Below are positions 42,242 to 60,697 of a stretch of 64,000 nt of DNA, piece after piece. How positions within the stretch are numbered: the first letter of the stretch is position 1; each line of letters opens with the position of its first letter. This DNA comes from Naegleria gruberi (lineage: Eukaryota): NCBI GenBank assembly GCA_000004985.1, contig GG738850.1; one strand, given 5' to 3'. The notes under the pieces were generated by a model. The model did no database searches. It was not told the DNA's origin and worked only from the letters and a program-made list of their open reading frames with translations. The translations under genes were made by a program, and so were the position numbers.

Positions 42242-43930
42242 ATGATGACGACTTTGCTGGCGAGAAAGAGACATCAACAATCATTCTTTCATCTCACTCT
42301 TCTCTTAATTTTAATAGGAGTGGTTGCTGTAGTAAAGTCTGAAATATTTAATTTTAAAGATTCTAAAGTACATTATGGATCATTCATAGTAAAAAGATTA
42401 TCCATTGTTACGGAAAAGAGAGCATCATCATCTTTTTTAACCTTGTCTAAACTCCGAAAGCCATCTCTCACTTTGGATTTTAATATTAATCATGAAGAAG
42501 GTGTAGATAATACAATGTTTTCTATGGTTGTATTTGGTGAAGATTTGCAAACATTATTTAATAATGCATCGGAGAATTATTATTCGTTGAGTAGTCTTTT
42601 AACTGATAAAGTTTGCGAAAATCATGTTGCCATATCAAAGAGATCACATTTAACTCGTTTCACTCATAGAATGCATGCAAAATATGAAGATTTTACAAAA
42701 TCAGGAATTTATTATGCAATTATTTTGAATTGTGACACTGATAGTAGTCAAAAGTCAATGACAATTACCACTGGTACTATCAGATACACTAATCCTTTTG
42801 GTCAATTGAGTGCTGAACAATATAGTAATCTTCCATTTTATGCTATCATGTCTATTGCTACGTTCAGTATTGGTATCATTTACATTCTTTCAGTTCTTGG
42901 ATTTGAAATTGAGTGCAAGAGACCTTTTGGAATTCAATTTATTAAGAAATTGTTATTCTGGAGAAAGGATACTACTAGGGAAACACAGGCTCCAAAGAAG
43001 AAACCAGAGAAACTTGTTGGATCTTATTCTATTATAGTCTGGATTTGTGTTGTACTTTTATTATTCCTCTTTGAAAATTCATTCTCTTTTGCCATGTATC
43101 AATATATTGATATGAATGGATTGAATAGTAACTTTTTATATACAGGAGCTTCATTATTCCACATGCTTAGAAAATTGTTCAGCAGAGTATTTATTTTATT
43201 GTTGTGCATGGGGTATGGATCTATCAGAGATATCATTGGAGGTGTCAAGTCAATTTTAATATGGACCTATGCTTTTGTTTATGCTATGGCAGTTATTGCA
43301 AGTGAATTGGTAGATATGCTTTTCATCAAAGTTCATTTAATGAGCCCATTTGTTGCCAGTATCCTATCAACACCAATCATTTTCCTTGATATCATTGCAT
43401 TCTTATGGATTATTGGTGAACTCTTCACACTCATGAAACAACTAAAGAGAAAGGGTCAAGGAGATAGATTAAGCGTATTTATTTCCCTCACAGTAACAAT
43501 TATTTTCTATTTTATTGCTACTGTTGGTTGGGTTGTTTACTCTTACTTTATTCTTGATAACTCTGATCAATTCCAATATGATAAGAGGTGGGAAACTAAT
43601 TGGACTGTTGGAGCTGTATGGTCAATTATATTTATGGTTGTAATGATTGCTATTATGGTTATCTTCAGAAAGAGTAACATTATTAAGGTCCAAAGATTAG
43701 GAATTGAAAAGGAACAAAAGTATGCCCAACTTTCACAAAATGATGACGAAGATCAAGATGTCAAACAAATTCATGAAAAGTTAGAAAATGAAGAAGAATT
43801 AGATGAAATTATTGACAGAAAAGTCCAAAAGAAGGAATCGGTTGACACTAAACGACCAGGTTTTACAATTGATGATATTAGTGAAGAGGAAGATGATGGT
43901 GATCTAGAAGCTGTTGTCAAAAACAACTAA
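42242..43930 (+). CDS. GPR107/GPR108-like (Lung 7TM receptor family) membrane protein: signal peptide, luminal N-domain, 7 TM segments, acidic C-tail
   Basis: The ATG at 42242 is in aaaaaaaATGATG context and gives a signal peptide MMTTLLARKRHQQSFFHLTLLLILIGVVAVVKS. Seven hydrophobic helices lie in the C-terminal half, including LLLCMGYGSIRD. Confidence 0.55.
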   Translation: MMTTLLARKRHQQSFFHLTLLLILIGVVAVVKSEIFNFKDSKVHYGSFIVKRLSIVTEKRASSSFLTLSKLRKPSLTLDFNINHEEGVDNTMFSMVVFGEDLQTLFNNASENYYSLSSLLTDKVCENHVAISKRSHLTRFTHRMHAKYEDFTKSGIYYAIILNCDTDSSQKSMTITTGTIRYTNPFGQLSAEQYSNLPFYAIMSIATFSIGIIYILSVLGFEIECKRPFGIQFIKKLLFWRKDTTRETQAPKKKPEKLVGSYSIIVWICVVLLLFLFENSFSFAMYQYIDMNGLNSNFLYTGASLFHMLRKLFSRVFILLLCMGYGSIRDIIGGVKSILIWTYAFVYAMAVIASELVDMLFIKVHLMSPFVASILSTPIIFLDIIAFLWIIGELFTLMKQLKRKGQGDRLSVFISLTVTIIFYFIATVGWVVYSYFILDNSDQFQYDKRWETNWTVGAVWSIIFMVVMIAIMVIFRKSNIIKVQRLGIEKEQKYAQLSQNDDEDQDVKQIHEKLENEEELDEIIDRKVQKKESVDTKRPGFTIDDISEEEDDGDLEAVVKNN

Positions 43931-44213
43931 ATAGTATGAGCATTATATTTAATTTATTGAGAATATAAAAAAACAATATTCAAATTAGAAGAGGATTGTA
44001 ATAAGAGTGTCCAGTGTGTTTGAATAATATCATTGTGAAAATCCTTTTGCATCATCGAAAGATTGTATTTCATGTTCACTTGTTCCATCAACACTTTGGA
44101 GCGAAGAGACACTTCCTTATCTCCTTCAAGTTCATAAACGGGTACAAGTTTTTTAAAAACTGTACGGTTTTTGGCGGTTTTATCAAATAACCTCAATAAA
44201 AAAAATAACGAAA

Positions 44214-46455
44214 ATGCCTCTCAATTGTTGCGGTAAGAAGAAGAAGGGCGAAAATGGAGTAGAGGAAAAGGATGATTTTGATAAGAAACAAGTCCCATCA
44301 GAGTATGGTGTAAATAGAAAAAGATCTTGTACCGATGTATTATGTATTCCAGTGTTTATTTTGTTCTGGATTGGCTTATTTATTATTGCTGGTTTCGGTT
44401 TTTGGTCAGGAAATCCAGCAACTCTTGTAGAACCTTTAGATTATGCTGGTAATATGTGCGGATATGCTGTTGGAAAAGGAAATTCTAATGTCTTTGATTT
44501 ATCGAACAGGACATATTTATGGTATCCTTTCGAGTTCAGACCAGACCAATTGAAAGATATTACTACCTCTAGGTTAATTTCTGCCTTAGGGCTTGGCATT
44601 TGCGTGGAATCCTGCCCTGAGAATGTAGTCAGCCTTATTAGCCCTTTAACAAATCCTCTATGGGATGCAATTGTTTGTAGATATGACTCTAATGCAACAA
44701 CTGCTTATGATAAGGCCTTGCTTGCCTACAATGGTGATGGCTGTTATTTCAACTATTTTACTCATGAACCATGTAAGCATTTCTTTTTACATTTAACTTC
44801 AACAACAATCAGTCTTTAAAAGATGCATTCCAACCTTTGAAAATTCAACCATTGATTCATTTACTAAATTAACTTTCCAACAAACTTTGAAAATTTCAAA
44901 TGGACTCAAACAGGGATTGAGTGAGGTTGGAAAATCATGGCTGCCGATTCTTATTTCATCAGTTTTATGCGTGATTTTATGTTTTGTATTTGTATTATTT
45001 ATGAGACTATTTGTTGGAATTGTAGTAAGGGTTATTGTTATGGCATTCGGTATTGTTTTGGGTGTTGCTGGTGGTTATATTCTATATATCGGTGTCAAGA
45101 AATATGTTGCATCAGAAGTAGATGGTGTTATTGACACTGATTTAAGAACTGCTGCAAATTGGTGGTTGGCCATTGGTGGTATTATTTTATCAATTTTACT
45201 TATTTACTTAGTATTAATGATTTTCCTTTGGGGTAGAATTAGTAAGGCTATTGCAATTATTAAGGAAGGAAGTAGAGCTGTTAACAAATTCCCATCTATG
45301 ATTATTATCCCAGCAGTTATGTTCTTTTTAATTTGTGGTTTAACAGTATGGTGGGCAACTGTTTCTATTTTCCTTCAAAGTACTCAAAAGCCTGTCACAA
45401 TTAGCTCAACTGATGCTAGATGGGCTTCCTATATGAATTCTATATCGGACTTTATGAACACCTCTAGATTGGCAAATAGTTCAATTACTATTGATCAAGG
45501 AACAACAGCTCTCCAAGTATTGAACTTGTATAATTTATTTTCATATTTCTGGGCTGTTGCATTTGTAGATGCCTTGGCATATGTAACAATTGCAGGTGTA
45601 GTTGCATCTTGGTATTTTGGTGGTATTGGTGATGACAAGAAGTCTGAAAAATTCTCAGTTGCAAAGTCATTTTGGAGAGCAATTAGATACCATATCGGCT
45701 CCATTATCTTTGGTTCGTTGGTAGTTGCGATTGTTCAGATGATAAGGTACCTATTTAAGAAGTTAAAGTCGCGGTTTGAAAATTTAGCAAAAGCAAACAC
45801 AGTAGCTACATGGATTTTGAAAGTATTTGATGGAATATTGTGGGTGATTGAAAAGATTGTCAAGTTTATGAACAAGAATGCTTACATCATGATTGCTATT
45901 CACGGTGGAAACTTTTTAATGAGTTCTTCTAGAGGTTTTATGATCGTGCTTGAAAATATTTTGATTGTTGGTACTACTAACACAATCAGTGATGTGGTCT
46001 TGTTCCTTGGTAAGATTTTGTTAACAGTTGTTAGCTCTGTAATCTGCTATTTGATTATTGACTTGAACAATATGTATCTCTTCTTTAACCCAGTACTTCC
46101 AGCAATTGAATATGGTATCATTCCCTCTCTTGTTTGCGCTGTCATTACTTTCATTATCACCACTCTTTTCATGAATCTTTACGATACAGCTATTGATACT
46201 ATTTTATTGTGTGTCAGTTATGAGTTGTGGATCAATCCTGGTGAATGTAAGGGCCCATACTTTATGACCTCAAGATTGAGAAAGATATATCTTGGAAAGT
46301 TAAAGATGGATCGTATTGGTGATTTCTCAAGTTGTTGCAGTTGTTTCAAGAAGGACAAGGATGAAAACAGAGTCACCACAGTGGACAATAAGGAAATGGA
46401 TACTTCCAATAAGGACACGAAATCCAAAGCATCACAAGATAAAAACAAAATGTAA
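44214..46455 (+). CDS. Choline transporter-like (CTL/SLC44/Pns1 family) protein. Two exons: 44214..44772 and 44813..46455.
   Basis: GTAAGC donor at 44773 and ..caatcag acceptor at 44812 (40-nt intron). It joins frame 0 to frame 1 without a stop. Motifs include N-terminal RSCTDVLCIPVFILFWIGLF and C-terminal NPVLPAIEYGIIPSLVCAVITFIITTLFMNLYDTAIDTILLCVSYELW. Confidence 0.75.
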
Positions 46456-46468
46456 ATAAATTATCAGT

Positions 46469-47755
46469 TTAGAAAAAGTCAATGTCCATTAATTTGTTTT
46501 CATCTAAAAATCGTTCGTTATCCATTTCTATATCAAATGGTTTGGTGAATGTGATAGAAAGTTCAGATTTTCTCTTTTCTTCTTCTTCTCTTTGTTTCCT
46601 GTCCAGAATTGATTTGTGTTGGTGTTGTTGATATTGGAAAGCTGTTACTGCAGCTTGATATTGTCTTTGTTTGAGTGTTTCTTCATCCATTTGATTCAGT
46701 TGTTTCTTATTATGTTGAACTCTTCCCCAAGAAACTCTTACTCTATTTCCTTGAATTTCTATACCGTTCATTTCAATAATTGCTCTTTCTGCATGTTCTG
46801 TTCTTGTAAAATTAATAAAACCACAATTACTATTAGTTGGTATCTTTACAGAGGTAATTGGTCCATAACCTTGGAAAAATTCTCTTAAAATCTTTTCATC
46901 AGTATTAGGTGACAAGTTACCAACATAGACAGTTGTATTTTCTTGTTCAAGTGGATCAGTTGTAATAATTGTAGTTGGCATTAAATCTTCTGGAATAGTT
47001 TGTGGAATTATATTTGTTGGTATAGATGGTAATGCATTATTATTAAATAAATTTTGAGAAAGACCAGTTCCAGCCAAAGTACCTAGAGCTCCCTGACTCT
47101 TGAAATTATTGGTAGCATGTGAAATTTTAACAGGTCTAGAAGAAATATAAACTCCTTGCATTTCAGTCATTGATCTCATCATATCATCTTCATCAGCAAA
47201 TTTTACAAAACCATAACCTTTAGAAATACCACTTTTTGGATCCATAACAACTTTAGCACCTCTAACACTTGGATATCTATTTCTAAATGTTTGTTCTAAC
47301 ATGTAATCATTCACATCAGGTGCTAAATCACCAACGAAAATAGAAACAATATTTTCCTTTCCACCTGATGATGGTTTTCCACCAGGTTGACTTGAGAATA
47401 ATGGATTTGATCCTTGATTTTGTGCTGCCCAATTTAATCTATAAATCTTATTCGGAAGTGTTGGTATTGGTTTTCCTGCATAGGACTCTAAAACTGCTTT
47501 AGCAATTTCTATTGATGCAAATTCTACAAATCCGTAACCAATAGATTTTCCTGTATTTCTATCTTTAATAATCTTTACAGAATTAATTGATGGTCGAATA
47601 TCATTAGCAAATAATTTCTTTACATATTCATCGTCCATAGAATCATCCAAATCACCCATCCACAATGTTCTTGCTTTTTGATTACTTTTATCGTTCATTC
47701 CTCCCGATGATGATGATGGAATGAAGCCTCCTCTCTGTTCACGTCTATTAAACAT
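46469..47755 (-). CDS. RNA-binding protein with three RRMs (TIA-1/Pub1/Nam8-like)
   Basis: True ATG in aaaaaaaATG context (MFNRREQRGG). RNP1 motifs are KGYGFVEF, KGYGFVKF and CGFINF. RNP2 motifs are LWMGDL, IFVGDL and VYVGNL. Confidence 0.75.
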   Translation of the reverse strand: MFNRREQRGGFIPSSSSGGMNDKSNQKARTLWMGDLDDSMDDEYVKKLFANDIRPSINSVKIIKDRNTGKSIGYGFVEFASIEIAKAVLESYAGKPIPTLPNKIYRLNWAAQNQGSNPLFSSQPGGKPSSGGKENIVSIFVGDLAPDVNDYMLEQTFRNRYPSVRGAKVVMDPKSGISKGYGFVKFADEDDMMRSMTEMQGVYISSRPVKISHATNNFKSQGALGTLAGTGLSQNLFNNNALPSIPTNIIPQTIPEDLMPTTIITTDPLEQENTTVYVGNLSPNTDEKILREFFQGYGPITSVKIPTNSNCGFINFTRTEHAERAIIEMNGIEIQGNRVRVSWGRVQHNKKQLNQMDEETLKQRQYQAAVTAFQYQQHQHKSILDRKQREEEEKRKSELSITFTKPFDIEMDNERFLDENKLMDIDFF

Positions 47756-47937
47756 TTTTTTTATTTGATCTTTTTTTGAATGTGTTGTTTGCGAATGAAC
47801 AGAAATTAAATAATTGAATAATTGTAAATATTTAAACTTACTGATTTGATAATACATTCAATTACTAAAGCATTACGATAATTAATGTGCACTAAAATAT
47901 TCTCTAAATTTCAGTTAATTTATTTTTAATAGTTTTT

Positions 47938-48652
47938 TTAATTCCTATCATTGATTATTCTTTTAATTTCCAAATAAATTTGTTCTTCTGTACTGCTTCT
48001 TGTCACTGAGACTATTTTACATTTGGAGACAGCTTCAAAATATTGGAGTGCAATTTGTACATCAGAGATTTGACTGGTTGGAGCTTGTTCATCCTTAAAG
48101 TATATACACATTTCAAATTCATTAATTTCTTGTTCCGTATTGACAACATCTGCTATTGTTTGTGGATAATTAATTAACATGAAATCTCTGTAATTTGATA
48201 TTTCCATATATTCTTCGATTTCAACTTTCAATTCTTGCATATTTGGGAAGTTTTTAGTGTTAATGCTAGTTTTTAAATCAATTATTCCAATTTCTATTCA
48301 AAACATGCAATACCTACATTTTCATGTTCATATCTGTTGCAATATGTTTGATGGCTTGATGTATTTCAAAATCTTCCTTAGTGTCTGTAATAATACCTAT
48401 CAATCTTGGCTTTGGAGATGTAGTAGCCTCCATTCCAAATTCTTTAATTTGTTTTAACCGATCCACCAATGCAGGATATGCTTGATTAGGTCTATGTACA
48501 ATCAATTCATAAATTAATTTTGAGAATAATTCCTTAATTCTATGTGATGCTAAATAATCTTGTGCTTGTTTGATTCTCTCCAAATTTTGTTTTTGTTCCT
48601 CCGATGTTGGCAATGAACCATACACCATACCTGCTTTCTCCTTTGATGACAT
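47938..48652 (-). CDS. RIIa/Dpy-30-like dimerisation-domain protein. Two exons: 48318..48652 and 47938..48265.
   Basis: IKELFSKLIYELIVHRPNQAYPALVDRL fits the RIIa/Dpy-30 motif. The GTAGGT donor (minus) at 48317 and ..aaaactag acceptor at 48266 (52-nt intron) remove the TAG and keep the frame. Confidence 0.45.
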
Positions 48653-48789
48653 TTTTTTTAAATAAGTTATTGTTGTAGATTAAAAATGGCGGGAAATGAT
48701 AGTCTTTGATAATAGTAATTAAATAAAGTTCAAACTGGTCATTGACTGCAAAATATTTTCAAAGTTACAAAATTGAAGGATTTATTGAA

Positions 48790-50076
48790 CTAGGCCCAAA
48801 ATATTTTAATGTGTTCGGATACAGTTCTACAAAGTGGACACTCTTTCTTAGTTTCTACCTTCTTTAATTGATCTACACATTCATGACAACATACACAATG
48901 CTTACACTCTAAAAATACAATATTTCTTAATTTTTCATTACAAATAACGCACAACAGGTGATCTTCTTCAATTTCTAATTTTTCTAGTTCACCAAACTTG
49001 TCAGATGTTTGTTTTTTCAAATTTTCCAATCCTTTAGTCTTTTTCCAAATATTTAAATGCTTTACATCTACAAAGTGTTGGAATGTATGATCGTGAAGGT
49101 GAATAGGGTTTTCAGTTCCGAACTGTTTAAAATTCTCATGGCAATCTTTACATAAACAATAATCCTCACTTGGTGACAATTCAAAACATGTAACACATTG
49201 ATGAATATTGGTTGATACTGAAGCACTACAACAGTGACATTCCTTTTTTTCCTTGTTTTCAGTACTAGTGGCAGTGCTACTACTAGGAGCTACATTTGAA
49301 GAAGATGGTGGTATAATTTTTACAGCAGAGTTCAAAGTTGTGCTTGTAGTCAATGGAGTTTGATTAATGACAGTACTTGTTGTCATTGGATTGCTAGAGA
49401 TACTACTGCCTACAACACTCGGAAATTGTTGTGGATAGGATGGTGGAGGAGGATTGCTTCTTGGATAGGATGGTGGTGGTTGATAGATATTATTATTCAT
49501 ATTTGACGGATAAGAGCTTGTGATTATTGGTTGTTGAGGATTGTAAGGTCTTGGAGGTTGATAAATCATACTATTTGACATATTATTTGATGTTGTACTA
49601 GTAGTGGTTGGTATTGTTGATGAATTAATCATTGGATTATTCGTCAACATGTTATTATTATTTCTTGATGGTGGATTATTTACAATAACTGAAGAGGAAA
49701 TTGGTTTTGATGAAGTCATCATACTATTATTATTACTAGCAGAAACTCCATGAGTTAGGAATGTATGAAAAGAAGGATGAGAAATTCCCTTTTTCGTATG
49801 AAAACAATTCTCGCAATAGTCAAAATTGCCACACGTTGCACAATGATATCTAACTCCAACAATAGGCTCTACAGAACAACCATCACATCGATAACTGGTA
49901 TGAACAGTTGCTTGTTGTTGTTGAGCAGATCCTGTATTATTATTTGTCGTTGTATTACTCCCATTCACTGATGAAAACATTCTATTACCACCATGATTCA
50001 CCATAGAGGAGGCTAATGATGGTGAAGATGATGAAAAGTTGAACATTTTTTTTAATGGTGTTGTTTGATGTTCCAT
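48790..50076 (-). CDS. Putative E3 ubiquitin ligase with two ZZ-type zinc fingers and a C-terminal C3HC4 RING
   Basis: The first ZZ finger is YRCDGCSVEPIVGVRYHCATCGNFDYCENCF. The RING is CVICNEKLRNIVFLECKHCVCCHECVDQLKKVETKKECPLCR. Candidate ATGs lie at 50076 and 50046, the latter in aaaaaaaATG context. Asn/Pro-rich linkers separate the domains. Confidence 0.6.
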   Translation of the reverse strand: MEHQTTPLKKMFNFSSSSPSLASSMVNHGGNRMFSSVNGSNTTTNNNTGSAQQQQATVHTSYRCDGCSVEPIVGVRYHCATCGNFDYCENCFHTKKGISHPSFHTFLTHGVSASNNNSMMTSSKPISSSVIVNNPPSRNNNNMLTNNPMINSSTIPTTTSTTSNNMSNSMIYQPPRPYNPQQPIITSSYPSNMNNNIYQPPPSYPRSNPPPPSYPQQFPSVVGSSISSNPMTTSTVINQTPLTTSTTLNSAVKIIPPSSSNVAPSSSTATSTENKEKKECHCCSASVSTNIHQCVTCFELSPSEDYCLCKDCHENFKQFGTENPIHLHDHTFQHFVDVKHLNIWKKTKGLENLKKQTSDKFGELEKLEIEEDHLLCVICNEKLRNIVFLECKHCVCCHECVDQLKKVETKKECPLCRTVSEHIKIFWA

Positions 50077-50425
50077 GTTACACCATAAAGCAAATGTTCT
50101 AAATATAAAATAGAACGTGAGAAGAATTCCTTTGTTTTGTAAACGTGGCAAAATTAATGATGGGTTTCCTTAATGATAAAGGTATTTCAATTTAGAATCT
50201 GTTCTTCTGAGAAACAATTTCTTAAATCTTTATTAGCCCATTCAGCAGTAGTTTATTCAGATAAGAATAGTGGAACGTGTTGAACTCCCAAACAGTAGCC
50301 AAGAATACAAAGGTACGGTTTTGTTTAAATCTGTTTCTTCAGCTATTATTCTTTGAAAATGCACTCACAGATCAAATGCTTGTGCATATTTTAAGTTACA
50401 GGAACCTTAATTTAAGATGGTTTAT

Positions 50426-50545
50426 GACTACGGCCATATCACGATTCATGCACCTCATCCCGTCCGATTTGAGAAGTTAAGCATCGTCGAGCCACATCAG
50501 TACTGAGGTTGGAGACAACTTGGGAACCTGTGGTGCTGTAGTCTT
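50426..50545 (+). rRNA. 5S ribosomal RNA gene (chromosomal, dispersed copy) with T5 terminator
   Basis: The sequence GACTACGGCCATATCACG...CCCGTCCGATTTGAGAAGTTAAGC...AGTACTGAGGTTGG...GGGAACCTGTGGTGCTGTAGTC is followed by TTTTT. Helix I pairs GACTACGGC with GCTGTAGTC. Confidence 0.85.
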
Positions 50546-50662
50546 TTTATTCTTTCTAATATTGAGCTTTATCGATAAAGTAATCGAGTAAACATACAAG
50601 TATTTATCTATCCATCTCTATCATTTGAAAATTTTGGCAAGTTAAAATTGATATCATTCAGA

Positions 50663-50733
50663 TGCGTCGACCGGGAATTGAACCCGGGTCACGGCGATGG
50701 CAACGCCGTATTCTACCACTAAACCATCGACGC
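50663..50733 (-). tRNA. tRNA-Gly (GCC), copy 1
   Basis: The reverse complement GCGTCGATGGTTTAGTGGTAGAATACGGCGTTGCCATCGCCGTGACCCGGGTTCAATTCCCGGTCGACGCA folds as a cloverleaf with anticodon GCC. Confidence 0.9.
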
Positions 50734-51073
50734 TTCTTACTAAGGTATTAAGGATTGTTTGGTTCTAGAAATTAAAGTAAATTGCCTTTATAATCTGACA
50801 ATTGTCAAAGTTGGAGCTTTCCTCACAATATACTGCTTCGGATTCCTCTGTAGCAATGTTTTAGAATACTTAAACCTTGTGTTTGATTTGTCAAATACTT
50901 GTTTCAAGTTCTCTGTGAAGATATGATTGTTCCATACTTGTATACCTGCTTAATTGCTCACAATTCTTCAATAATGATATTTGTTTAATAAATATGTTTT
51001 GAAAGAGTGATAACAGATTAAAATATCAATATTCCATTCAATGCAAATACAATACAAAATACAAGTAGCTTTA

Positions 51074-52291
51074 TTACAAAAACATTCCAATCAATGCCAA
51101 CATGACAATTAAAACGCTTCCAAACTTAATACTAACAGCATCACTTGTGGAAGATGCAGATGTATCCTCAGTACCAACACTAGGGTCCCAAATGAAATTG
51201 GAAACTTGTTCAGTGAAGGAAACATAAAATCTAACAACCTTTGCACTGGAAATATCAGCAGTAATGGCACCATAAGCCAATGTATTAGTATTTGCAATGG
51301 TGGCTGTTGAAGTTGAGGTAGAAACCAAAGTGGCTTTGGAAACAACAGTAGATCCAGTGCTATACTTGGAAACATAGGATTGGAATGAAAAGTATGGCTT
51401 TGGAATATTGAAAGTACTTGACAAATTCCAAGAAGAGAGGAAACTAGATTGATCGAATTGGAAAACAATTTGATCAGATGAGGCAGAATCTGGTCTTTCT
51501 TCTGAGGTGGTTGCAAATAAATCTCTGAGACTTCTACTGGATGCCTTCTTGGCCAATGATCCACGATAGGCAAGGAGTGTGGAAATTGCCAATTTACCAT
51601 TTGAATTCAAATAATTAATTCCAGTAAATTCCAAAGATGACTTGTAGGATGATGGAACTAAAACTTGTGAAACTCCTGATCTAGCAACCAATGATGAATC
51701 AGAGAATGTAACCTCATTAGTTGTTAAATAGCCAGTGAATTTAACAGTACACAAAGTTCCAACAGATGCACTTGTTGTAACTTGATAAATATAGGCAGAT
51801 GAAGAAGATGAAATGGAAGTTTTCACAAGAGTTGGAGTTGACCAAGTAAGACCAACCAAAGGATATTCCTTGACAATTGTATCTCCATTTCCTTCTTGAT
51901 ACCCACTAACTCCATCATTGTCCAAATATTCAATTACTTTGTCCACACCGAATGCAGCTCCAACATCAATAGAAATAGTGGTGGACAAGAGAGAGGTAAT
52001 CTTGATGGAAACTCCAGCACTGGCAACAGCTTTAACCATTGGGATAGTACCAAAAGCAGCATAGAATTTAAGTTGAGTGAAGGTTGACAAGCTTGTTCTG
52101 TTAGTTCCCAAATCACAGGTGGCAGCAGAAGTCAAGGAAACTTGTGAACTTGTTGTGGATGTGGTTACATCTCTCTTACATGAGAGATTGTTAGTTTTCA
52201 AACTGAAACTGACAGATGATGCAGCACTAACGACTTGGATAATGAGAAGCAGTAATAAACTAGCTCCAATTACAACGTGTTGTTTTGACAT
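51074..52291 (-). CDS. Ser/Thr-rich secreted, probably GPI-anchored cell-surface protein
   Basis: N-terminal signal peptide MSKQHVVIGASLLLLLIIQVVSA. C-terminal hydrophobic tail FGSVLIVMLALIGMFL. About 35% of the sequence is Ser plus Thr. Confidence 0.5.
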   Translation of the reverse strand: MSKQHVVIGASLLLLLIIQVVSAASSVSFSLKTNNLSCKRDVTTSTTSSQVSLTSAATCDLGTNRTSLSTFTQLKFYAAFGTIPMVKAVASAGVSIKITSLLSTTISIDVGAAFGVDKVIEYLDNDGVSGYQEGNGDTIVKEYPLVGLTWSTPTLVKTSISSSSSAYIYQVTTSASVGTLCTVKFTGYLTTNEVTFSDSSLVARSGVSQVLVPSSYKSSLEFTGINYLNSNGKLAISTLLAYRGSLAKKASSRSLRDLFATTSEERPDSASSDQIVFQFDQSSFLSSWNLSSTFNIPKPYFSFQSYVSKYSTGSTVVSKATLVSTSTSTATIANTNTLAYGAITADISSAKVVRFYVSFTEQVSNFIWDPSVGTEDTSASSTSDAVSIKFGSVLIVMLALIGMFL

Positions 52292-52979
52292 TTTTTTTTG
52301 AAATGTTCTTTGCAGAGAACATTATGTGCCTTTTGTTCGCTCTCTTAGATCTTGTAAAGTGACGAAAGAAATGAAAATGGCACCTAGATTACTTGATTGA
52401 GTTGGTTAGGAAAGTGTTCAATCAGTCACTCAACGGAAGTTTAAGGTTCTAAAAGAGCGAAATTAAGAGTGGACCATTCCAACGTCTCTACATGGGCTTA
52501 TTGTATCTACTCATTACAATATTCTAGTTCCTTTTGTGAAAATCATGCTGAAATTAATTGCATTCTCAGGTTCCAATTCTATAACTCTTCTTCAACAGTT
52601 TAATGATTATTCATCTTGTTTGAGGAGTTTGAGCAACATGATTGAGGAAGTGAAGAGGGATAGAATTTATCATTCATTCCTTATATCAGGAATTTATTGA
52701 CTAGGATTGTAACTGAATCATTGATATTAAACAAATTCATTGAAGATAATAAGTGTTACCAGAGAGGTTTTGCCATTCTTCATATTTTCAAATTGTTTGG
52801 TACAAAAAACTTTGAAAAAATAAATATAAAAAATTCCTTCAAAACTGTGATAATTTTCTAGATGATTAAAATAGATGAAAACATGAAATTTCAGATTTAG
52901 GTAGACACAAATGTCTACTTTTATCTATAAAAAATTGAATTATTGAGGTTTAGTATCTATAACCTAAAAAAGTAATTCC

Positions 52980-53050
52980 TGCGTCGACCGGGAATTGAAC
53001 CCGGGTCACGGCGATGGCAACGCCGTATTCTACCACTAAACCATCGACGC
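52980..53050 (-). tRNA. tRNA-Gly (GCC), copy 2 (identical to copy 1)
   Basis: Identical 71 nt. The 11 nt immediately 5' of the gene (CTTAGTAAGAA on the minus strand) are also identical between the copies. Confidence 0.9.
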
Positions 53051-53623
53051 TTCTTACTAAGTAATGAAATTTTACAAGCACGATACAACCTTATTGGGTT
53101 AGAAAATATTAGCTGAAGTAATAAAACTACCACATCATACTAGAGCTAGTATTAGAAGAGTTTCGGCTCTTTCGAAAATGAAATTTTTCTTCAAATATAC
53201 ACATTCATTTTCATGTATAATTTAAAATAGGTTCAAATTCAATTTGGTAGAATTACAATTGAAAAGAAAATTGCTTGTAAAATTTTCCTTATGTTCCTTA
53301 AAGAAATTGGACCACCATTAAATAATGATCACGAACATTCTAATGAAACGTAAATTGATTATTATATAATACATAAAATCCAATTCAAAGTCAAGGATAT
53401 TATACTAGTTATCAAATAATACCCATCTATTGTATAGATAATGGATCAGGTATTAACATGTTCGTAAAAAATTCCTGGTATTCCTTCCTTTTTGTGCAAT
53501 TCAAAAAGTAGGAACAGACAACTATCATTGTCAAGCCTTTGCTAAATATCTTCTTTAATAAATTAATTTTATTTTTTAAAAAATTCATGAAATTGTGCTG
53601 AAGCCTAATAATTGATCGGAAGA

Positions 53624-55717
53624 ATGACAACAAATATACCTTCATCTAATCATCAGAATGGATTGTTGTTGGCGAGGAATAAATTTAGAGAAATGAATAA
53701 TGATATTTACAGTGTAATCATGTCCTTTATGGATGTGATGAATTCATCATCGTTTTATTCATTCCTCTACCAGAAATATAATGATCAGAGTGATGAATTG
53801 TTGAAATTTATATTCCCAGCACTTTATAATTTGAGTAATAATTCTTCATCATCGGATCAGCCAACAAATAATAATACTACTATTAAAGTTAATAGTGAAT
53901 TGACTGAGATAACATTTATATTACATTGCCTTGGATTAGTGAATCAATTAAAATCAGCAGTTACATTTAATTCACTGCCTCCTTTGGAAGTTTTCCCTAA
54001 CATTGACTTGTACAAGGAATGTGATAATTTTGTTTCCTTGTTGGAGTTGATTAAAACCGAATATATTTACTATAAGAAAGTTGACCGTCTAAAATTATTT
54101 AAATTTGTAATGAATTTAGATTGTTTGGCAAGATATATTGGATATGGGCTTTCACACTTTAATTTAAAAACAAAGTCTTTGAAAGATTCCTATTTTACAA
54201 CATTTTCAGCTTTACCATTCTTGAAGAAGGTAAAGGAAACTCTTTTAGAAAAGTTTGAACCAATCCAACTTTTTGAAAAGTATCACATACCAATTACTTC
54301 ACGTGCAATGAAGGAAATTTTGAATCAAATGACCTTTAGATCGAATAAGTATATCAGCTCATTCTATTACTCTACGTATGGTTACTCTCTATGCATGGAT
54401 ATTATAAGAGTTACTGAACATGAAATTATGGAGGAAGATTTTGTCAATACTCTTTCTTATTCATTTAAACTTAATTTTTTGAAGGATTTACATATTTGGG
54501 CGGATTTCAGAAAGATAAAGAATGAGAAATTATTTTTTGATCAGCTTTTGAAGCTCATCGCAAATTTGAACAATAATTTGAATTTGCTCTACATAGATAT
54601 TGACTATTACGAAAATGAAGATCAACTTGTCAAATTAATGGAACTACTCAACTCGGTAAAGAAGAATTTGCACCATTTGACAATATCTACATATACAGAA
54701 TCAAAAGATATGGATCCTTTCGTTAAAATTTCAAAACTTGACTTTACTCACAATATCAAACACTTGACTCTCATCGATAAGAATAATTTCAACTTGTTGA
54801 ATAGGCTAATTTTCAAGAATGCTTCCAGTTCTGAAAATTCAAAACTTGAACAGCTAACAATATCAAATATTGACTATTTATACATGTTTTTGAATGCTCA
54901 TACATCCCTTAAGAGACTTGATTTTTATGGGAATTTGAATTCAACTAATGAGAGCTTTAACGATACAAACCTTATCAAGGAATCATTTATGAACCTCAAG
55001 TCCTTAGATACTGTCTTTATAGATGATAGAAATGAAGCATTGGGATACTCTGTTCTTGGAAATATGGGAATTTATATCAATAACATTATCTTCAAATATA
55101 GTAAGAATGGATATACACTTTCCTCTCTCATTGAATGCTTTAAAAGAAACGCCAGAAGAGTTGACAAATTAACTATTATTGACAATACTAACTTTGGCAC
55201 AAATATCCAATTATTGTGTAAGATTGTTTCATCATTTTTGTTTGATAATATTCTGAACCAATTGGTCATACACACAAGACATGTGTCATTGTTGAACGAA
55301 TTGACCTTCTCAATCCACCACATGTTCTCACCAACTGAGCTCGAATTGAAATATCTTCAGATTATTAAGAAGTTGAATTCTATTGATTTTATTCTATTTA
55401 TTGGAAAGGCTAATAATCCAAACAATAACTTTACCAACTCGAATTTAAATGTAACCATAACAATAGTTCATAGCATACCAATATCTGGAGAATTTAATAT
55501 CAAGGATGAAATTATTGATAAAAGAGCAGAAATAGAAAGTGTAATGAGTAATGTCTGTATTTTGGGAAGTAGTGTCCAATTAGATCAGGTTGATATTCAC
55601 ACATTCAGACCACCTTTCAATCATTATTTATTCTATAGATTTTTGCATTCACTCTCATTTTCCAATAATTTAACACTGACTAGATCATCACTTTATCAAT
55701 TAATGATTGTGAAATAA
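53624..55717 (+). CDS. Hypothetical large protein (about 697 aa), possibly with an F-box-like N-terminus and LRR-like repeats
   Basis: The ATG at 53624 lies upstream of the long ORF that the track begins at a TTG. No confident homology. Confidence 0.45.
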   Translation: MTTNIPSSNHQNGLLLARNKFREMNNDIYSVIMSFMDVMNSSSFYSFLYQKYNDQSDELLKFIFPALYNLSNNSSSSDQPTNNNTTIKVNSELTEITFILHCLGLVNQLKSAVTFNSLPPLEVFPNIDLYKECDNFVSLLELIKTEYIYYKKVDRLKLFKFVMNLDCLARYIGYGLSHFNLKTKSLKDSYFTTFSALPFLKKVKETLLEKFEPIQLFEKYHIPITSRAMKEILNQMTFRSNKYISSFYYSTYGYSLCMDIIRVTEHEIMEEDFVNTLSYSFKLNFLKDLHIWADFRKIKNEKLFFDQLLKLIANLNNNLNLLYIDIDYYENEDQLVKLMELLNSVKKNLHHLTISTYTESKDMDPFVKISKLDFTHNIKHLTLIDKNNFNLLNRLIFKNASSSENSKLEQLTISNIDYLYMFLNAHTSLKRLDFYGNLNSTNESFNDTNLIKESFMNLKSLDTVFIDDRNEALGYSVLGNMGIYINNIIFKYSKNGYTLSSLIECFKRNARRVDKLTIIDNTNFGTNIQLLCKIVSSFLFDNILNQLVIHTRHVSLLNELTFSIHHMFSPTELELKYLQIIKKLNSIDFILFIGKANNPNNNFTNSNLNVTITIVHSIPISGEFNIKDEIIDKRAEIESVMSNVCILGSSVQLDQVDIHTFRPPFNHYLFYRFLHSLSFSNNLTLTRSSLYQLMIVK

Positions 55718-55718
55718 A

Positions 55719-56891
55719 TTATTTCCATCGTTTAATTTGTGAAATTTCTTTAGAACATATTGGACAGTTCACAATATGCTCACTCGAATCGTTCAATAAT
55801 GCACTTTGAATACAGTAATAGCAAAATCGATGTTTACAATCCCCATCATGACTTGTGAATGGAATAAGTATTGGGTTACTGTTACAATATGGACATTCAT
55901 CATTCAGTTTGTCAACATCTACACCGTCCTGACTAGTCAAATTCTTTGCAATAATACTTGCTGTGGAATTTGGTGTACTTTCTCCAAGATGGAAAATTTG
56001 TGATTTGATTGTCAAATAGAATTTTCTGTACAAGAATGTAAAAAGCTTTTTGAAATTGATAAGGGGAGCAATAAATAATATTGTCTCTGCTAACCCATTC
56101 CAAATTAATTCAGTATTCATGTAATCAAAAGATAATTGTCTTATCATAAACCTAGTGGCATAAACCTTTCTCCAATTAAAAACTCTATCTATTACAGACT
56201 TGTACTTTCCCTGGTAGAGGAAAATTACAAAGTTTATAAATTCCAATAATTTGTAATAATATTCAAATTTTTTCAAATAATTAAATGATTCTCTTTTAGA
56301 TAATCGTTCAAATAAATATGGAATACCTATACAAGAAAGTCCATATATTACTTTCGAAATTGTTGATGGATTTTTTAAATTGACTGTATTATATTTTAAA
56401 TTCTGTATTCCATCACCAAAAGATTGATTATTATCAAAAATTGAATATTTGTATATAAATATTCTAATAAATAACATTATTTCCGGTTCATAATTTTCAA
56501 CACTATTAAAATGTTTAAATACTCTTTTAAAATAGCCTTTTAAATAATTTTCAATTTCGAAATCTAATCGATCCGAATCCAATTGATTAACTTTTAAAAT
56601 TTTAATATCATTCAACATGTTGTGATGATGTAAAGATGATGATCCATTCCTCTGATGACTTAAATATTCTTTCAAATTAAAGTATTGTTCCGATTCTGAT
56701 TGATTACTTGAAGCATGATCCAAGCCTTCGTTCCCTTCCATCATTGATGAATTCCCATTGTATGATACATTACCATCACGTGCTTCACTAACAGATGGGA
56801 ATTCATTCTCTTCACTGTTCACAGGAGAGTTTGTTGCAACACCATTATTGTTATTAATAGCAGACAATGTCGATGGTATTGTAGAAGACAT
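55719..56891 (-). CDS. pex2: Peroxisome biogenesis factor 2 (PEX2): Pex2/Pex12 N-terminal domain plus C3HC4 RING
   Basis: The RING CPYCNSNPILIPFTSHDGDCKHRFCYYCIQSALLNDSSEHIVNCPIC carries the PEX2-typical C-x-H-x-F-C-Y-Y-C core. The ATG at 56891 gives MSSTIPSTL. Confidence 0.7.
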   Translation of the reverse strand: MSSTIPSTLSAINNNNGVATNSPVNSEENEFPSVSEARDGNVSYNGNSSMMEGNEGLDHASSNQSESEQYFNLKEYLSHQRNGSSSLHHHNMLNDIKILKVNQLDSDRLDFEIENYLKGYFKRVFKHFNSVENYEPEIMLFIRIFIYKYSIFDNNQSFGDGIQNLKYNTVNLKNPSTISKVIYGLSCIGIPYLFERLSKRESFNYLKKFEYYYKLLEFINFVIFLYQGKYKSVIDRVFNWRKVYATRFMIRQLSFDYMNTELIWNGLAETILFIAPLINFKKLFTFLYRKFYLTIKSQIFHLGESTPNSTASIIAKNLTSQDGVDVDKLNDECPYCNSNPILIPFTSHDGDCKHRFCYYCIQSALLNDSSEHIVNCPICSKEISQIKRWK

Positions 56892-57037
56892 GGCTCGAAT
56901 TATTTTTAAAGAAGTGAATTGATGAAAAGCAAAAGAGAAAATTCTTAAGAAAAAAAAGGCGCAACTTATCTTCAACTTCGACTTTTTCTCTCCAGCACCC
57001 AACTAATATTGGCCAACTCCCCAGAGAAGAATAAAAA

Positions 57038-59167
57038 ATGTATCCAGGAGGCAACAACGATCCCAACAATGTTGCTAGGATGGCTCAGCTTTTGAAAAAT
57101 CCGCAGTATTTATCCATGTTGGCCAACAAGATGAACACTCCTTTTTTGCAAGGCCAGCCAACTTTGATACATCACCCAACGGCTGGCACTACAATTACTC
57201 CCAATGCTATGGCATTAATTCAATCAGCTGCTCTTCAACAACAACAACAACAACAGCAGGCTAATATTAATGCAACAACAAATGGAGGAGCTAGAATAAT
57301 GCCATCAACAGCTAGTATTATTCCTAATGGTAATGGTGGAGTAAATAATAATAATAATGGAGCAGTTAGTAAATGGCATGACGATTTGAGTAGACATACA
57401 AGACAGGAATTATTCAATACAATAGTAGAGATTAAAACTGGTAAATCGTTTAATGGTGACAAATCATCTATAGACAGCAATTTGAGCAAATCTATTCTTA
57501 ATCAAATCAGTAGGATATGGAAACAAACAAATTCTAAAGAACAATTTGCTCATGAGTTATCACAATGGCTTGCAACTGAAAATACAGGTGTTTCTGAAAC
57601 AGATATTGAAAAGAAATTGTTGGAGCTCATGAACAAACCTGGTCAACAACAAAAACCATCTTCATCTGTGGGGGTTGAAAACTTGTTTGGAATGATGACA
57701 ACAGCTGCATCATCAATAGGTACAAACAGTTCATTCCCAAATATTACAAATCCCATCAATTCAGCCAAAAACCCAACTGGAGGAACAAATACAACAACAG
57801 CCACAAGCACTTCTACTACCACAACAACATCCAACACAAACACTTCCACTACTACTAATACAGCTGTAAATAATACCAATGGTGTAACCACCACTAGTGC
57901 ACCTCCTGTGCCTAGCACCAATCCAACTAATCCACCCATCAAGAAAATTTCTCCACAAGACATTGAAAAGTATTTAGGATTTGCCGATTTCTTAAAGCAA
58001 CACGAGGATATGATTAGACAATACATTAGATCAGTTGCTACGCAGCATGCCGATTTAACTAAACGACTCAAAACTTTTTCAGTACTCTCATCTGAGGAAC
58101 AAAACAAGGTAAAAGCTAGTATGCAAAAGAATCAAATGATTTTAGCAGAATCTAAAGCACTAGATAAGTTACTTTCATTGACTACTAGAGAAGATCGTGT
58201 GAAACTTTTGGAAAATTTAACTCAAAAATCCTTTGCATTTGCAGTTCATATTAAGGATGTTATCGAGAAGAAATTAAAACCTGTCAAAACTGATACTGCT
58301 CAACCTCCAACTGCTACTGCTCCTCCACCTCCACCTACCACTTCAGCAACAGCCACAAATAATACAAGTAGCACAACCGTTTCTTCAGTATCGTCTACAT
58401 CCTCAATCAATAACGCTACTGCTGTTCCTGTTACAAATCAACCTAGTGTTACTCCAACTCCAACTCAATCGGCAAATCAACAAACAGCACCTGCTAGCTC
58501 ATCTAATCCTCCTTCAGCTGTCCCTTCCACAAATCATAAAAAGGAATCTGGTGATGATGGATTTTTCAATTTGAAAAAGATTGGAGAATCTTCTATTATA
58601 ACATTTAATCAAGATTCCTTTTACTCTGCTTTAGGAGAAATGAATATCAAAAATCTAACACATTCTACTAAGAGAAAACTTATACCTGAGTCTACAGAAC
58701 ATGAAAAAGTTCTAAAGAGAGTCAAAACTCCAATCGACATTTTACAAAACAATTTAACTAATTTAATTGAGTTTGATAATGTAATAGAATTTAAAAATAC
58801 AATTAATATCAAACTTATCGAAGATGCTAGATACCAACTCGATTTTATAATTAACCCTATTGAAAAAGGAATTTTGAATTTACCAATTTTAACTTTATGT
58901 GTAATAGTTAATCATAATGAAATAATACCGTATTCTATATCATTTTCTCAAAACTATGCCAATGAGAAGAATTCTATATTTGTAAATATTAGAAAATATT
59001 TTAATAATTTATTGATTGAAAACACAACTAGTTTTATTAATACAAGTGACATGTTGAGCACCCAAAACAACACTTACCACATACAAAGATATAACCTCTC
59101 CTTGAATTGTATTTTAAATAGTTGGATTACCTCAATTAATACCGTTGTAAAAAAAGAATTGCAATAA
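57038..59167 (+). CDS. Gln/Thr/Asn-rich hypothetical protein; weak KIX/Mediator-Med15-like hint near the N-terminus
   Basis: 709-codon ORF with a true ATG in aaaaaATG context. Poly-Q, poly-T and poly-N tracts. AVSKWHDDLSRHTRQELFNTIVEIK...ISRIWK is loosely KIX-like. Confidence 0.45.
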   Translation: MYPGGNNDPNNVARMAQLLKNPQYLSMLANKMNTPFLQGQPTLIHHPTAGTTITPNAMALIQSAALQQQQQQQQANINATTNGGARIMPSTASIIPNGNGGVNNNNNGAVSKWHDDLSRHTRQELFNTIVEIKTGKSFNGDKSSIDSNLSKSILNQISRIWKQTNSKEQFAHELSQWLATENTGVSETDIEKKLLELMNKPGQQQKPSSSVGVENLFGMMTTAASSIGTNSSFPNITNPINSAKNPTGGTNTTTATSTSTTTTTSNTNTSTTTNTAVNNTNGVTTTSAPPVPSTNPTNPPIKKISPQDIEKYLGFADFLKQHEDMIRQYIRSVATQHADLTKRLKTFSVLSSEEQNKVKASMQKNQMILAESKALDKLLSLTTREDRVKLLENLTQKSFAFAVHIKDVIEKKLKPVKTDTAQPPTATAPPPPPTTSATATNNTSSTTVSSVSSTSSINNATAVPVTNQPSVTPTPTQSANQQTAPASSSNPPSAVPSTNHKKESGDDGFFNLKKIGESSIITFNQDSFYSALGEMNIKNLTHSTKRKLIPESTEHEKVLKRVKTPIDILQNNLTNLIEFDNVIEFKNTINIKLIEDARYQLDFIINPIEKGILNLPILTLCVIVNHNEIIPYSISFSQNYANEKNSIFVNIRKYFNNLLIENTTSFINTSDMLSTQNNTYHIQRYNLSLNCILNSWITSINTVVKKELQ

Positions 59168-59345
59168 TTGTAAATAAACATTGCTATGTACATTCAAATA
59201 TTAAAATAACTGACTTTTGTATAACGTGCACTATTCGAAACTTGTCTAAAGCTTTTTCAATAGATTTAGTAATAAGGGGTATCATTAATGGAAATAGATA
59301 TTTGTTTATTACAATTTGGATATCATGTTCAAAAGAAAGATCAAT

Positions 59346-60395
59346 TTATTTGAAATATTTAACAAGTGAATAGCCTAACAAACCTGTTAAACCAACACCT
59401 AATAATGCAGAACCAATCATTTTGCCATAATATTGAACTGGGTGATGATGCTTATAGTCAATGTCATATATTCCAAACCAATTCTCAACCTTGTTAACAA
59501 CAGAGTTGAAATCCTTCCTTGTTCCAATAACTTGAATATCAAACCTATGTTCGAAACCAATCTTTTCATAAATTGGTCTGCCATCCATTGTTGCATGCAA
59601 TACACAATATTTGTAATTATTGAGTAGAGCAATTTCTAAAAGTAGAGTAACCACCAATGAAGCAAAGCCCTGACCCTGATAATCTGGTCTTGTTGTAATG
59701 GAAAATAATGAGGATATTTCCCTTCCCTTAATGAGTTGACCACATGCAACAACTCTTCCATCCTTTTTAACAATGACCCATTCATAAACTTCTGATTTCA
59801 ACACATATTGAGCATATAATTGACTTGCATCTTTTGGTAATTCTTCACCATAGAATGCTTCATAGTAAGTTTCTGCAATTTCAACTGCTTCTTCAGAAGT
59901 ACTCAAAGTTTTAATTACAAAGTCCTTTCCTTGAGCTAGAATAACTCCAGATTCATGTTGAACTTTTTGTAAACTTTCCTCAATAAATCCAAACTCATTT
60001 TTCAACTTTTCCAATATTTTCTCTCTCAATTTCCTACTCTCCATCAAATCACAAATCATTCCAGTACTAACTTCAATCCAACTAATTGGCATCTTGTCAA
60101 AAATTGTTTTTTGCAATCTATCAAACTTTTGTGTCCTATTTTTCGAATCATACATTGGAATAAATAAATAAACAGGTACACCATCCGATTGTTCCCGAAC
60201 AGTTTCCATAAATTGTAAGCTATTTTCACTCCTGGTAACATAGAAAAGTTCAGGTGCTGGCAATTTTTTCAGTATTTCCTTCTTAAATCCTGGCATGCTT
60301 GTATTCTCATTCTCATACAGGTCAAAAACAGAGGGAAAACCTTTAACAAGTGCTGTGTTATAATCAAAGAGTCCATCAATGATGAGTTTGTTCAT
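59346..60395 (-). CDS. GNAT-family N-acetyltransferase with a C-terminal hydrophobic anchor
   Basis: VACGQLIKGREISSLFSITTRPDYQGQGFASLVVTLLLEIALLNNYKYCVLHATMDGRPIYEKIGFE matches GNAT motifs A/B (Q-x-x-G-x-G/A). Confidence 0.6.
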   Translation of the reverse strand: MNKLIIDGLFDYNTALVKGFPSVFDLYENENTSMPGFKKEILKKLPAPELFYVTRSENSLQFMETVREQSDGVPVYLFIPMYDSKNRTQKFDRLQKTIFDKMPISWIEVSTGMICDLMESRKLREKILEKLKNEFGFIEESLQKVQHESGVILAQGKDFVIKTLSTSEEAVEIAETYYEAFYGEELPKDASQLYAQYVLKSEVYEWVIVKKDGRVVACGQLIKGREISSLFSITTRPDYQGQGFASLVVTLLLEIALLNNYKYCVLHATMDGRPIYEKIGFEHRFDIQVIGTRKDFNSVVNKVENWFGIYDIDYKHHHPVQYYGKMIGSALLGVGLTGLLGYSLVKYFK

Positions 60396-60697
60396 TTTTT
60401 TTGTGGAAGTAAAAGAAAATTCATTATTTTTTCACACAACAAAGAATTAAATAATTATTGAGAGAAAATTGTAGATTATTGAATGAATTTATTGTCAATA
60501 AATTCGAAAGAAAGTAAATTGGTAATGACAAGGTTGGATAATTTAGATAATGATATCAAACTCTACTTTTGAAAAAAAGATTTCACATGATGAACTTTAC
60601 ACACCATGATTTCACCTCAACTCTTATTACACTTAAATCAATTTGACCAACATCAATCAATTGTCAACTATTTGATAGCCAAATAACAATAAAAAAA

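Follow-up and report, generated by a model that had tools for sequence, protein, structure and literature searches.

A chromosomal stretch of Naegleria gruberi carrying a dispersed 5S rRNA gene and two identical tRNA-Gly(GCC) genes

The DNA analyzed here (the window, 64 kb in length) is very probably part of a Naegleria gruberi chromosome with three independent Pol III genes, one for 5S rRNA and two for tRNA-Gly(GCC), which we infer to be expressed. The organism is identified by the protein genes NAEGRDRAFT_46389 and NAEGRDRAFT_78409, which are both present in the window at 100% identity and both located on one 707,703-bp N. gruberi contig; the former, bracketed by the two tRNA genes, is 100% identical to XP_002681517.1. 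The flanks of the cluster consist of ordinary single-copy N. gruberi protein genes, and the neighboring genes share 75% identity with N. fowleri. In the arrangement that we propose, each Pol III gene would use its own internal promoter (the internal control region for 5S, the A box TGGTTTAGTGG and the B box GGTTCAATTCC for the tRNA genes) and its own T-run terminator. Both tRNA-Gly genes would derive from one ancestral gene, their bodies being kept identical by purifying selection and possibly by gene conversion as well, and NAEGRDRAFT_46389 would be a lineage-specific member of a secreted or GPI-type family that is merely located between them.

The 5S rRNA gene, a dispersed chromosomal copy, occupies positions 50426–50544 on the plus strand, where the Rfam covariance model RF00001 scores 101 bits (gathering score 38) and aligns across model positions 1–120, without truncation. 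The minimum-free-energy fold (−38.2 kcal/mol, z = −2.46) is the canonical three-way junction, with helix I closing two arms. By direct reading of the sequence, a T5 run (TTTTT, 50544–50548, plus strand, in the context AGTCTTTTTA) provides the Pol III terminator, and an AT-rich, TATA-like stretch, ATATTTTA, is present at 50386–50393 on the plus strand, approximately −40 to −33 relative to the gene. The 5S genes of N. gruberi have been described as carrying an upstream TATA box together with an internal control region (PMC3369914); ATATTTTA is a possible upstream promoter element, and may correspond to the published TATA box. On visual inspection, box A (AGTTAAGC...) agrees with the pattern applied in PMC3369914 and box C deviates from it at two positions. 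Rfam detected no other rRNA genes in the 64-kb window, and a sensitive Rfam scan detected no further RNA genes between 47800 and 54000. Matches below threshold (Plastid-ycf2 antisense to the tRNA genes, and snR76 at 22 bits) were discarded as noise, and a scan for bacterial promoters and terminators, irrelevant in a eukaryote, returned hits at chance level.

The two tRNA-Gly(GCC) genes, copy A at 50663–50733 and copy B 2,317 bp further on at 52980–53050, both lie on the minus strand. Each was found by ARAGORN and scores 66.9 bits against Rfam RF00005, and the copies are identical across all 71 nt. Both form a cloverleaf with a GCC anticodon, contain the A and B boxes given above and are followed by a T-run. 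For copy A, the likely terminator is the first T4 run (50644–50647, minus strand), located 16–19 nt past the 3′ end, with a second T4 run at 50628–50631 on the same strand; for copy B it is a T6 run at 52966–52971 (minus strand), 9–14 nt downstream, all three by direct reading. An earlier note on this DNA had claimed a 5S gene with a T5 terminator 118 bp from a tRNA-Gly(GCC) gene, an identical second tRNA copy about 2.3 kb away in the same orientation, and a Ser/Thr-rich protein gene between the tRNA copies. Rfam, ARAGORN and reading of the sequence bear out the first two, and a 405-aa ORF of secreted type bears out the third. Apart from the tRNA copies themselves, a repeat search revealed no repeats around the cluster. 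DNA pattern scans for further copies of the tRNA and 5S genes found none in IMG/VR and none in the GTDB genomes scanned; the JGI metagenome scan gave a single match, a locus (L004) that contains an identical tRNA-Gly(GCC) gene without 5S.

The earlier note had also considered the organism as possibly dictyostelid-like, in which case a 5S copy located away from the rDNA element would be unusual. This framing does not hold for N. gruberi. The extrachromosomal rDNA element of Naegleria, an approximately 14-kb circular plasmid, encodes 5.8S, 18S and 28S only, without 5S (PMC5805870), and chromosomal 5S genes are therefore obligatory rather than unusual. Moreover, a chromosomal copy is to be expected because 279 putative 5S genes have already been reported on dozens of N. 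gruberi scaffolds, away from the rDNA (Feng et al. 2012, PMC3369914). The gene in the window shares with these its organism, gene identity, length (about 117–119 nt), upstream AT-rich box, T-run terminator and chromosomal location; there is no material difference, and it is one such copy. Like Naegleria, Dictyostelium has its large rRNA genes on an element outside the chromosomes, but the Dictyostelium palindrome carries 5S whereas the Naegleria plasmid does not, and the Dictyostelium-type linkage of 5S to 18S, 5.8S and 28S on an rDNA element is not found here. With 924 tDNAs counted in the N. gruberi genome (PMC2888827), scattered 5S and tRNA genes are a routine and already known state in this species. 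The significance of the result is small: an apparently odd chromosomal 5S gene corresponds to what is already on record as the usual condition of a genus with no 5S on its rDNA plasmid.

It is practically inconceivable that the 5S copy arose as an artefact of assembly, through misplacement of a fragment of the rDNA element. Besides the restriction of that element to 5.8S, 18S and 28S, an independent ENA metagenome contig from an environmental sample (k127_45809, ERZ929261; locus L008) joins the same 5S, tRNA-Gly and protein genes. The order on this contig (surface-protein gene, tRNA-Gly orthologous to copy A, convergent 5S) is the same as in the window, with 98.4% identity over the protein gene and a 5S gene that differs at 2 nt, in loop B. 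Mis-assembly, which the earlier note had named as the outcome that would undo its reading of the 5S gene, is thus excluded by this independent contig. The 118-bp spacing between 5S and tRNA is also conserved in L008, which represents one close strain.

Within the window, the 5S gene (plus strand) and copy A (minus strand) are convergent, a point that the earlier note leaves out, and are separated by a 118-bp gap (50545–50662) within which the terminators of both genes are found. Because they point towards each other, the two genes are not co-transcribable. A functional coupling of another kind has been weighed, in which, without TFIIIA, the TFIIIC/TFIIIB of the neighboring tRNA gene would aid transcription of 5S; by analogy with other systems this could be envisaged, but we judge it extremely improbable. 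The spacing and arrangement conserved in L008 are consistent with coupling, as is the failure of one study to find a TFIIIA in N. gruberi (PMC3369914); however, the same work attributes to the 5S genes of this species both an internal control region and a TATA box lying upstream, which counts against coupling. Furthermore, no 5S or tRNA gene is present where the genes flanking the cluster are located in N. fowleri (locus L001) and in N. lovaniensis (locus L005), and our own estimate (from 924 tDNAs, 279 5S genes and a genome size of about 41 Mb) puts the number of such juxtapositions arising by chance at roughly 1.5 to 4.

The tRNA-dependent snRNA promoters of trypanosomatids offer one analogy in favor of coupling. 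In the trypanosomatid tRNA-dependent Pol III promoter, a divergent tRNA gene is located about 95–100 bp upstream of the dependent gene, whereas copy A lies downstream of the 5S gene and is convergent with it. Leishmania, also a member of Discoba, has scattered 5S genes adjoining tRNA genes (PMC6562600), and this linkage again speaks for coupling; Leishmania, however, has 9–11 copies of 5S that are all linked to tRNA clusters, whereas Naegleria has hundreds, for which systematic linkage is unreported. The tRNA–5S units of Yarrowia lipolytica provide a further supporting analogy, with scattered 5S genes beside tRNA genes and outside the rDNA repeat (PMC2566860), but there the tRNA and 5S genes of a dicistronic unit share one strand and a common transcript that starts from the tRNA promoter. 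In the window, the genes face each other across 118 bp and each is supplied with its own terminator, so that there is neither a dicistron nor a divergent tRNA gene upstream, and the Yarrowia pattern (same strand, tRNA immediately upstream, no terminator between) is absent. The tRNA array units of Entamoeba that include 5S (PMC2652664) similarly combine tRNA and 5S in one short unit, but they form long tandem arrays with microsatellite-like spacers, in contrast to the window, which has a single 5S gene and in which the two tRNA genes, whose flanks are unrelated, stand 2.3 kb from each other on either side of a protein gene.

The identity between the two tRNA-Gly genes extends beyond their bodies. 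The exact repeat comprises 82 nt, made up of the tRNA gene and the 11-mer CTTAGTAAGAA directly 5′ of it, at 50734–50744 for copy A and 53051–53061 for copy B (both minus strand). Past −11, and 3′ of the gene, similarity between the copies falls to background level, in agreement with the exact 11-nt common 5′ flank and differing 3′ flanks that the earlier note had described. Given the local intergenic composition (probability of a match 0.284 per base), 11 matches out of 11 have P ~1e-6, and a chance origin of the common 11-mer was rejected. Allowing up to one mismatch, no further site for CTTAGTAAGAA was present in the window, in line with chance, and the 11-mer does not occur in loci L001–L008. 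The reading that best fits the sequence comparison is that it was left behind by duplication or by short-tract gene conversion: the 11 identical upstream bases would be what survives of the duplicated or converted tract, a small footprint of that event, rather than a general promoter element. Retroposition of a pre-tRNA was also considered as the cause of the sharp edge at −11 and set aside, as the 3′ trailers have nothing in common from their first base onward and carry neither CCA nor an A-tail.

The earlier note had left the choice between a duplication unit and a conserved upstream Pol III element. Common ancestry of the tRNA copies is a reasonable conclusion, but the 11-mer is no general Pol III element: CTTAGTAAGAA is missing upstream of tRNA-Leu(CAA), an initiator-type tRNA-Met, tRNA-Ile(AAT) and the identical tRNA-Gly(GCC) of L004, and is altered in L008. 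A narrower proposal is that CTTAGTAAGAA is a selected functional upstream element of tRNA-Gly(GCC), namely a start site, a TFIIIB contact or the 5′ leader of the pre-tRNA. The 11/11 identity lies directly against the gene (P ~1e-6, as above), with unrelated sequence farther out, and such an abrupt end would also fit a short, isoacceptor-specific start or leader element; 11 nt is a typical length for a eukaryotic pre-tRNA leader, which further favors the proposal. The flank comparison, which covered six independent Naegleria flanks, nevertheless makes this function unlikely. In the roughly 98% identical strain represented by L008, the flank of the copy A orthologue reads CTTAGTATGAG, with 2 of the 11 positions substituted, and the next ~90 nt of flank carry roughly 9% substitutions (manual count), so that the 11-mer is no better conserved than the flank adjoining it. 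This comparison concerns copy A, as the L009 contig, which represents the close environmental strain on the other side, begins 53 bp upstream of the neighboring gene and leaves copy B outside. The L004 copy, which belongs to a different Naegleria-like organism and lies at an unrelated locus, matches CTTAGTAAGAA at only 6 of 11 positions; these include AAGAA at −5 to −1, which counts for a function, while the low overall agreement and the absence of the motif from the other tRNA genes compared count against it.

A looser motif, T[TA]AG at −20 to −5, was present in 5/5 independent tRNA flanks (naive P ~2e-5) but failed the multiple-testing control, in which some pattern of that class was common to all five intergenic 30-mers in 107 of 400 randomly drawn sets; this also weighs against a functional upstream element. 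A broader reading of the locus would have Naegleria 5S genes placed beside tRNA genes to borrow TFIIIC/TFIIIB, and/or positions −11 to −1 (at least AAGAA) acting as a start or leader element of tRNA-Gly(GCC). With one 5S locus and six flanks to draw on, we consider this very improbable.

The protein gene between the tRNA copies, NAEGRDRAFT_46389, is a 405-aa ORF at 51074–52291 on the minus strand, with copy B upstream of it at a distance of 689 bp from the start codon. The translated protein begins MSKQHVVIGASLLLLLIIQVVSA and finishes ...SSTSDAVSIKFGSVLIVMLALIGMFL*; it has a signal-like hydrophobic N-terminus, many Ser/Thr residues and a hydrophobic C-terminal tail, and both hydrophobic segments are kept in two homologues (three-sequence alignment). 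On these sequence features, a GPI-anchored product is plausible. No Pfam match was obtained for the protein, and its AlphaFold2 model, computed from the 3-sequence alignment, has a mean pLDDT of 34.5. The family comprises about 30 clusters, of which the named ones are from Naegleria and Willaertia only; as judged from these sequences, it is a small family restricted to Heterolobosea. That the adjacent Pol III genes exert position effects on NAEGRDRAFT_46389 is speculation. As a separate observation, NAEGRDRAFT_80050, 62223 and 71918 are paralogues of NAEGRDRAFT_46389.

Finally, the gene order shared with N. fowleri and N. lovaniensis stops exactly at the Pol III genes and the lineage-specific surface-protein gene, and no 5S or tRNA genes were found in the syntenic regions of these two species. 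tRNA genes are generally associated with rearrangement breakpoints, and the position of the cluster at the end of synteny fits this association, a mildly useful by-product of the analysis.

The window is about 30% G+C and dense with long ORFs; one of them, choline-transporter-like, shares 75% identity with Naegleria fowleri and 62% with Willaertia magna. The product of the protein gene between the two tRNA-Gly(GCC) copies matches NAEGRDRAFT_46389 of N. gruberi (XP_002681517.1) at 100% identity, and the gene at 53624-55717 matches NAEGRDRAFT_78409 exactly; a single contig of 707,703 bp is on record for the two genes. Hence the window comes from an N. gruberi chromosome and not from a dictyostelid-like organism, as had been entertained in the earlier note. 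Its lowest G+C content is found at 10001-12000 (0.21 vs about 0.30 elsewhere).

The 5S rRNA gene (50426-50544, plus strand) is matched over its full length by the Rfam 5S model, scoring 101 bits where the gathering score is 38, and its RNA is predicted to fold into the standard three-way junction. A T5 terminator run is read from the sequence at 50544-50548 (plus strand), and a ATATTTTA stretch lies upstream on the same strand, at approximately −40 to −33. Copy A of tRNA-Gly(GCC) (50663-50733, minus strand; ARAGORN and Rfam) lies 118 bp from the 5S gene. The two genes are convergent, a detail absent from the earlier note. Rfam, ARAGORN and the sequence together bear out the originally described pairing of a T5-terminated 5S gene with tRNA-Gly(GCC). 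The accompanying suggestion that, in a dictyostelid-like organism, a 5S copy outside the rDNA element would be unusual does not hold for Naegleria, where a chromosomal 5S gene is ordinary (PMC3369914; PMC5805870). In this genus the 18S, 5.8S and 28S genes reside on a circular extrachromosomal element that numbers thousands of copies; the 14,007-bp element of N. gruberi is described as having 5.8S, 18S and 28S in single copy and lacking 5S (PMC5805870 and related announcements). Feng et al. (2012) reported 279 putative N. gruberi 5S genes "not located with rDNA units", distributed over dozens of scaffolds, some a few kb apart (Table S1), and with an internal control region, an upstream TATA box and T-run terminators (PMC3369914). 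The genome is also reported to contain 924 tDNAs (PMC2888827), so that genes of both kinds, 5S and tRNA, are numerous and dispersed in it. In how the N. gruberi genome is organized, the 5S/tRNA feature is ordinary and in essence on record already.

The same arrangement is present in an independent assembly of an environmental metagenome, ENA ERZ929261 (PRJEB11402), which includes an N. gruberi-like strain (contigs L003, L008 and L009) that is 98-99% identical to the window. Contig L008 (2,449 bp; 98.4% identity over the protein gene) preserves the order protein gene, orthologous tRNA-Gly(GCC), convergent 5S, which rules out the 5S copy being a mis-assembled rDNA fragment. In the L008 tRNA-Gly (2159-2229) the first T-stem pair is broken by a C-to-A substitution, which lowers the score to 59.8 bits, from 66.9 in the window; this could reflect decay of the copy, polymorphism or an assembly error. 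Divergence between L008 and the window amounts to ~4% substitutions plus 12 gaps in the tRNA/5S intergenic region and ~1% across the gene together with its 5′ region. L008 has an insertion of ~210 bp (L008 ~1650-1870, window ~50990) directly 3′ of the surface-protein stop codon. The contigs of the environmental strain end between window positions 52646 and 53571, around copy B, where its repeated sequence would be expected to cause a break.

The N. gruberi genome measures approximately 41 Mb. With this size and the counts of 924 tDNAs and 279 5S genes, a given 5S gene would have a tDNA within 118 bp with a chance of ~0.5%, or ~1-1.5% on intergenic DNA alone, and about 1.5 to 4 coincidental pairs are expected genome-wide. 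A functional link between the 5S gene and the adjoining tRNA-Gly must be set against this expectation and against the convergent orientation of the two genes, each with its own terminator, which makes both the dicistronic model from Yarrowia (PMC2566860) and the upstream-divergent-tRNA model from trypanosomatids inapplicable. By analogy, it stays a low-probability possibility, owing to the failure of Feng et al. to find TFIIIA in N. gruberi (PMC3369914) and to the linkage of 5S genes with tRNA genes in Leishmania (PMC6562600).

Copy B of tRNA-Gly(GCC) (52980-53050, minus strand; ARAGORN and Rfam) is identical to copy A at 71/71 nt, with a start-to-start distance of 2,317 bp. The exact repeat is 82 nt long, comprising the tRNA and CTTAGTAAGAA directly 5′ of it, with no flank similarity between the copies past −11 or from the first base 3′ of the tRNA. 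Repeat comparison thus corroborates the initial description of an identical, similarly oriented second copy with exactly 11 nt of common 5′ flank and differing 3′ flanks. Downstream, T4 runs are read 16 and 32 nt from copy A, and a T6 run 9 nt from copy B. A run of 11 matches has P ~1e-6 under the local intergenic base composition, so the common flank is not due to chance, and the copies are best read as paralogues. Selection would have kept the tRNA body identical, with the 11 nt as the remaining edge of a duplicated segment; alternatively, they may be the edge of a short gene-conversion tract with its other end hidden inside the identical tRNA.

Of the two origins proposed in the earlier note for the pair, shared ancestry is thus supported; a general upstream Pol III element is not, as the 11-mer is absent 5′ of the other tRNA genes of the window, tRNA-Leu(CAA) and an initiator-type tRNA-Met. 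The former (16861-16975, minus strand) contains a 32-nt intron and was detected by Rfam (37 bits) and an ARAGORN intron search, having been missed by default ARAGORN; the latter (CAT; 28808-28879, minus strand) bears the marks of an initiator: A1:U72, a GGG/CCC anticodon stem and an AUCGAAA T-loop. The window has four tRNA genes, all on the minus strand. Within the window the 11-mer occurs only at the two tRNA-Gly genes, even at one mismatch (two sites are also the chance expectation for an 11-mer of such composition), and it was not found in the eight comparison loci (L001-L008). A scan of JGI metagenomes returned one match, in another Naegleria-like organism and at a locus with no relation to the window (L004 47-277, Ga0247722_10058881), where a tRNA-Gly(GCC) identical to the window copies stands in tandem with tRNA-Ile(AAT), at a distance of 87 bp. 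The 5′ flank of this tRNA-Gly, TAAGGCAAGAA, has 6/11 ungapped matches to the 11-mer, including AAGAA at −5 to −1. At low probability, the few bases directly 5′ of tRNA-Gly(GCC) may be under weak isoacceptor-specific constraint. L008 has CTTAGTATGAG in place of the 11-mer at its orthologue of copy A, with 2/11 positions changed against ~9% substitutions (counted from the alignment) in the next ~90 nt of upstream flank; the 11-mer is therefore no better conserved than its surroundings. The 3′ trailers of the L004 tRNA-Gly (AATTAATGTTTTT) and of copy B (GGAATTACTTTTTT) are alike. T[TA]AG, a less strict motif, occurs at −20 to −5 in 5/5 independent tRNA flanks; it was discarded because some motif of its class is common to all five members in 27% of sets of five randomly drawn intergenic 30-mers.

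The left-flank genes (42137-50151; GOST_TM, choline-transporter-like, RRM and ZZ-RING) are syntenic with N. fowleri VFQX01000002, where a large RhoGEF/RabGAP gene follows 160 bp after the ZZ-RING gene and the 22-kb locus contains no 5S or tRNA gene. The right-flank genes (53612-63202) have their syntenic counterparts, differently ordered, on N. lovaniensis PYSW02000014, whose 21-kb locus contains no Pol III gene; none was found either in two Willaertia loci or at the locus of the N. fowleri surface-protein homologue. Judged from gene order, these comparisons indicate that the 5S gene, the two tRNA genes and NAEGRDRAFT_46389 (50152-53611) occupy a synteny breakpoint and that their arrangement is specific to the N. 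gruberi lineage. RRM and ZZ-RING, which are only ~930 bp apart in the window (47858-48789), have three further genes between them in the N. fowleri locus (L001 13734-18483): those for ribonucleotide reductase and histone deacetylase, and a 220-aa ORF.

The presence of a Ser/Thr-rich protein gene between the tRNA-Gly copies was also confirmed: the NAEGRDRAFT_46389 ORF (51074-52291, minus strand) encodes 405 aa with hydrophobic N- and C-termini and no Pfam domain. Structure prediction was unsuccessful (mean pLDDT 34.5). An exhaustive HMMER search placed the family in ~30 clusters at 50% identity; of the ten inspected, those with a name are Willaertia proteins and the N. gruberi paralogues 62223 and 71918, the others being unnamed environmental sequences. 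A further N. gruberi paralogue is 80050, and the N. fowleri homologue is FDP41_001871. The signal-like N-terminus and C-terminal hydrophobic tail are kept in both aligned homologues, and the sequence is compatible with a putative GPI-anchored surface protein. Finally, the choline-transporter-like ORF (522 aa) is short relative to its orthologues in N. fowleri (723 aa) and Willaertia (707 aa) and has a 201-aa ORF directly upstream (44214-44819; together 44214-46455, plus strand), which suggests one gene split by an intron.
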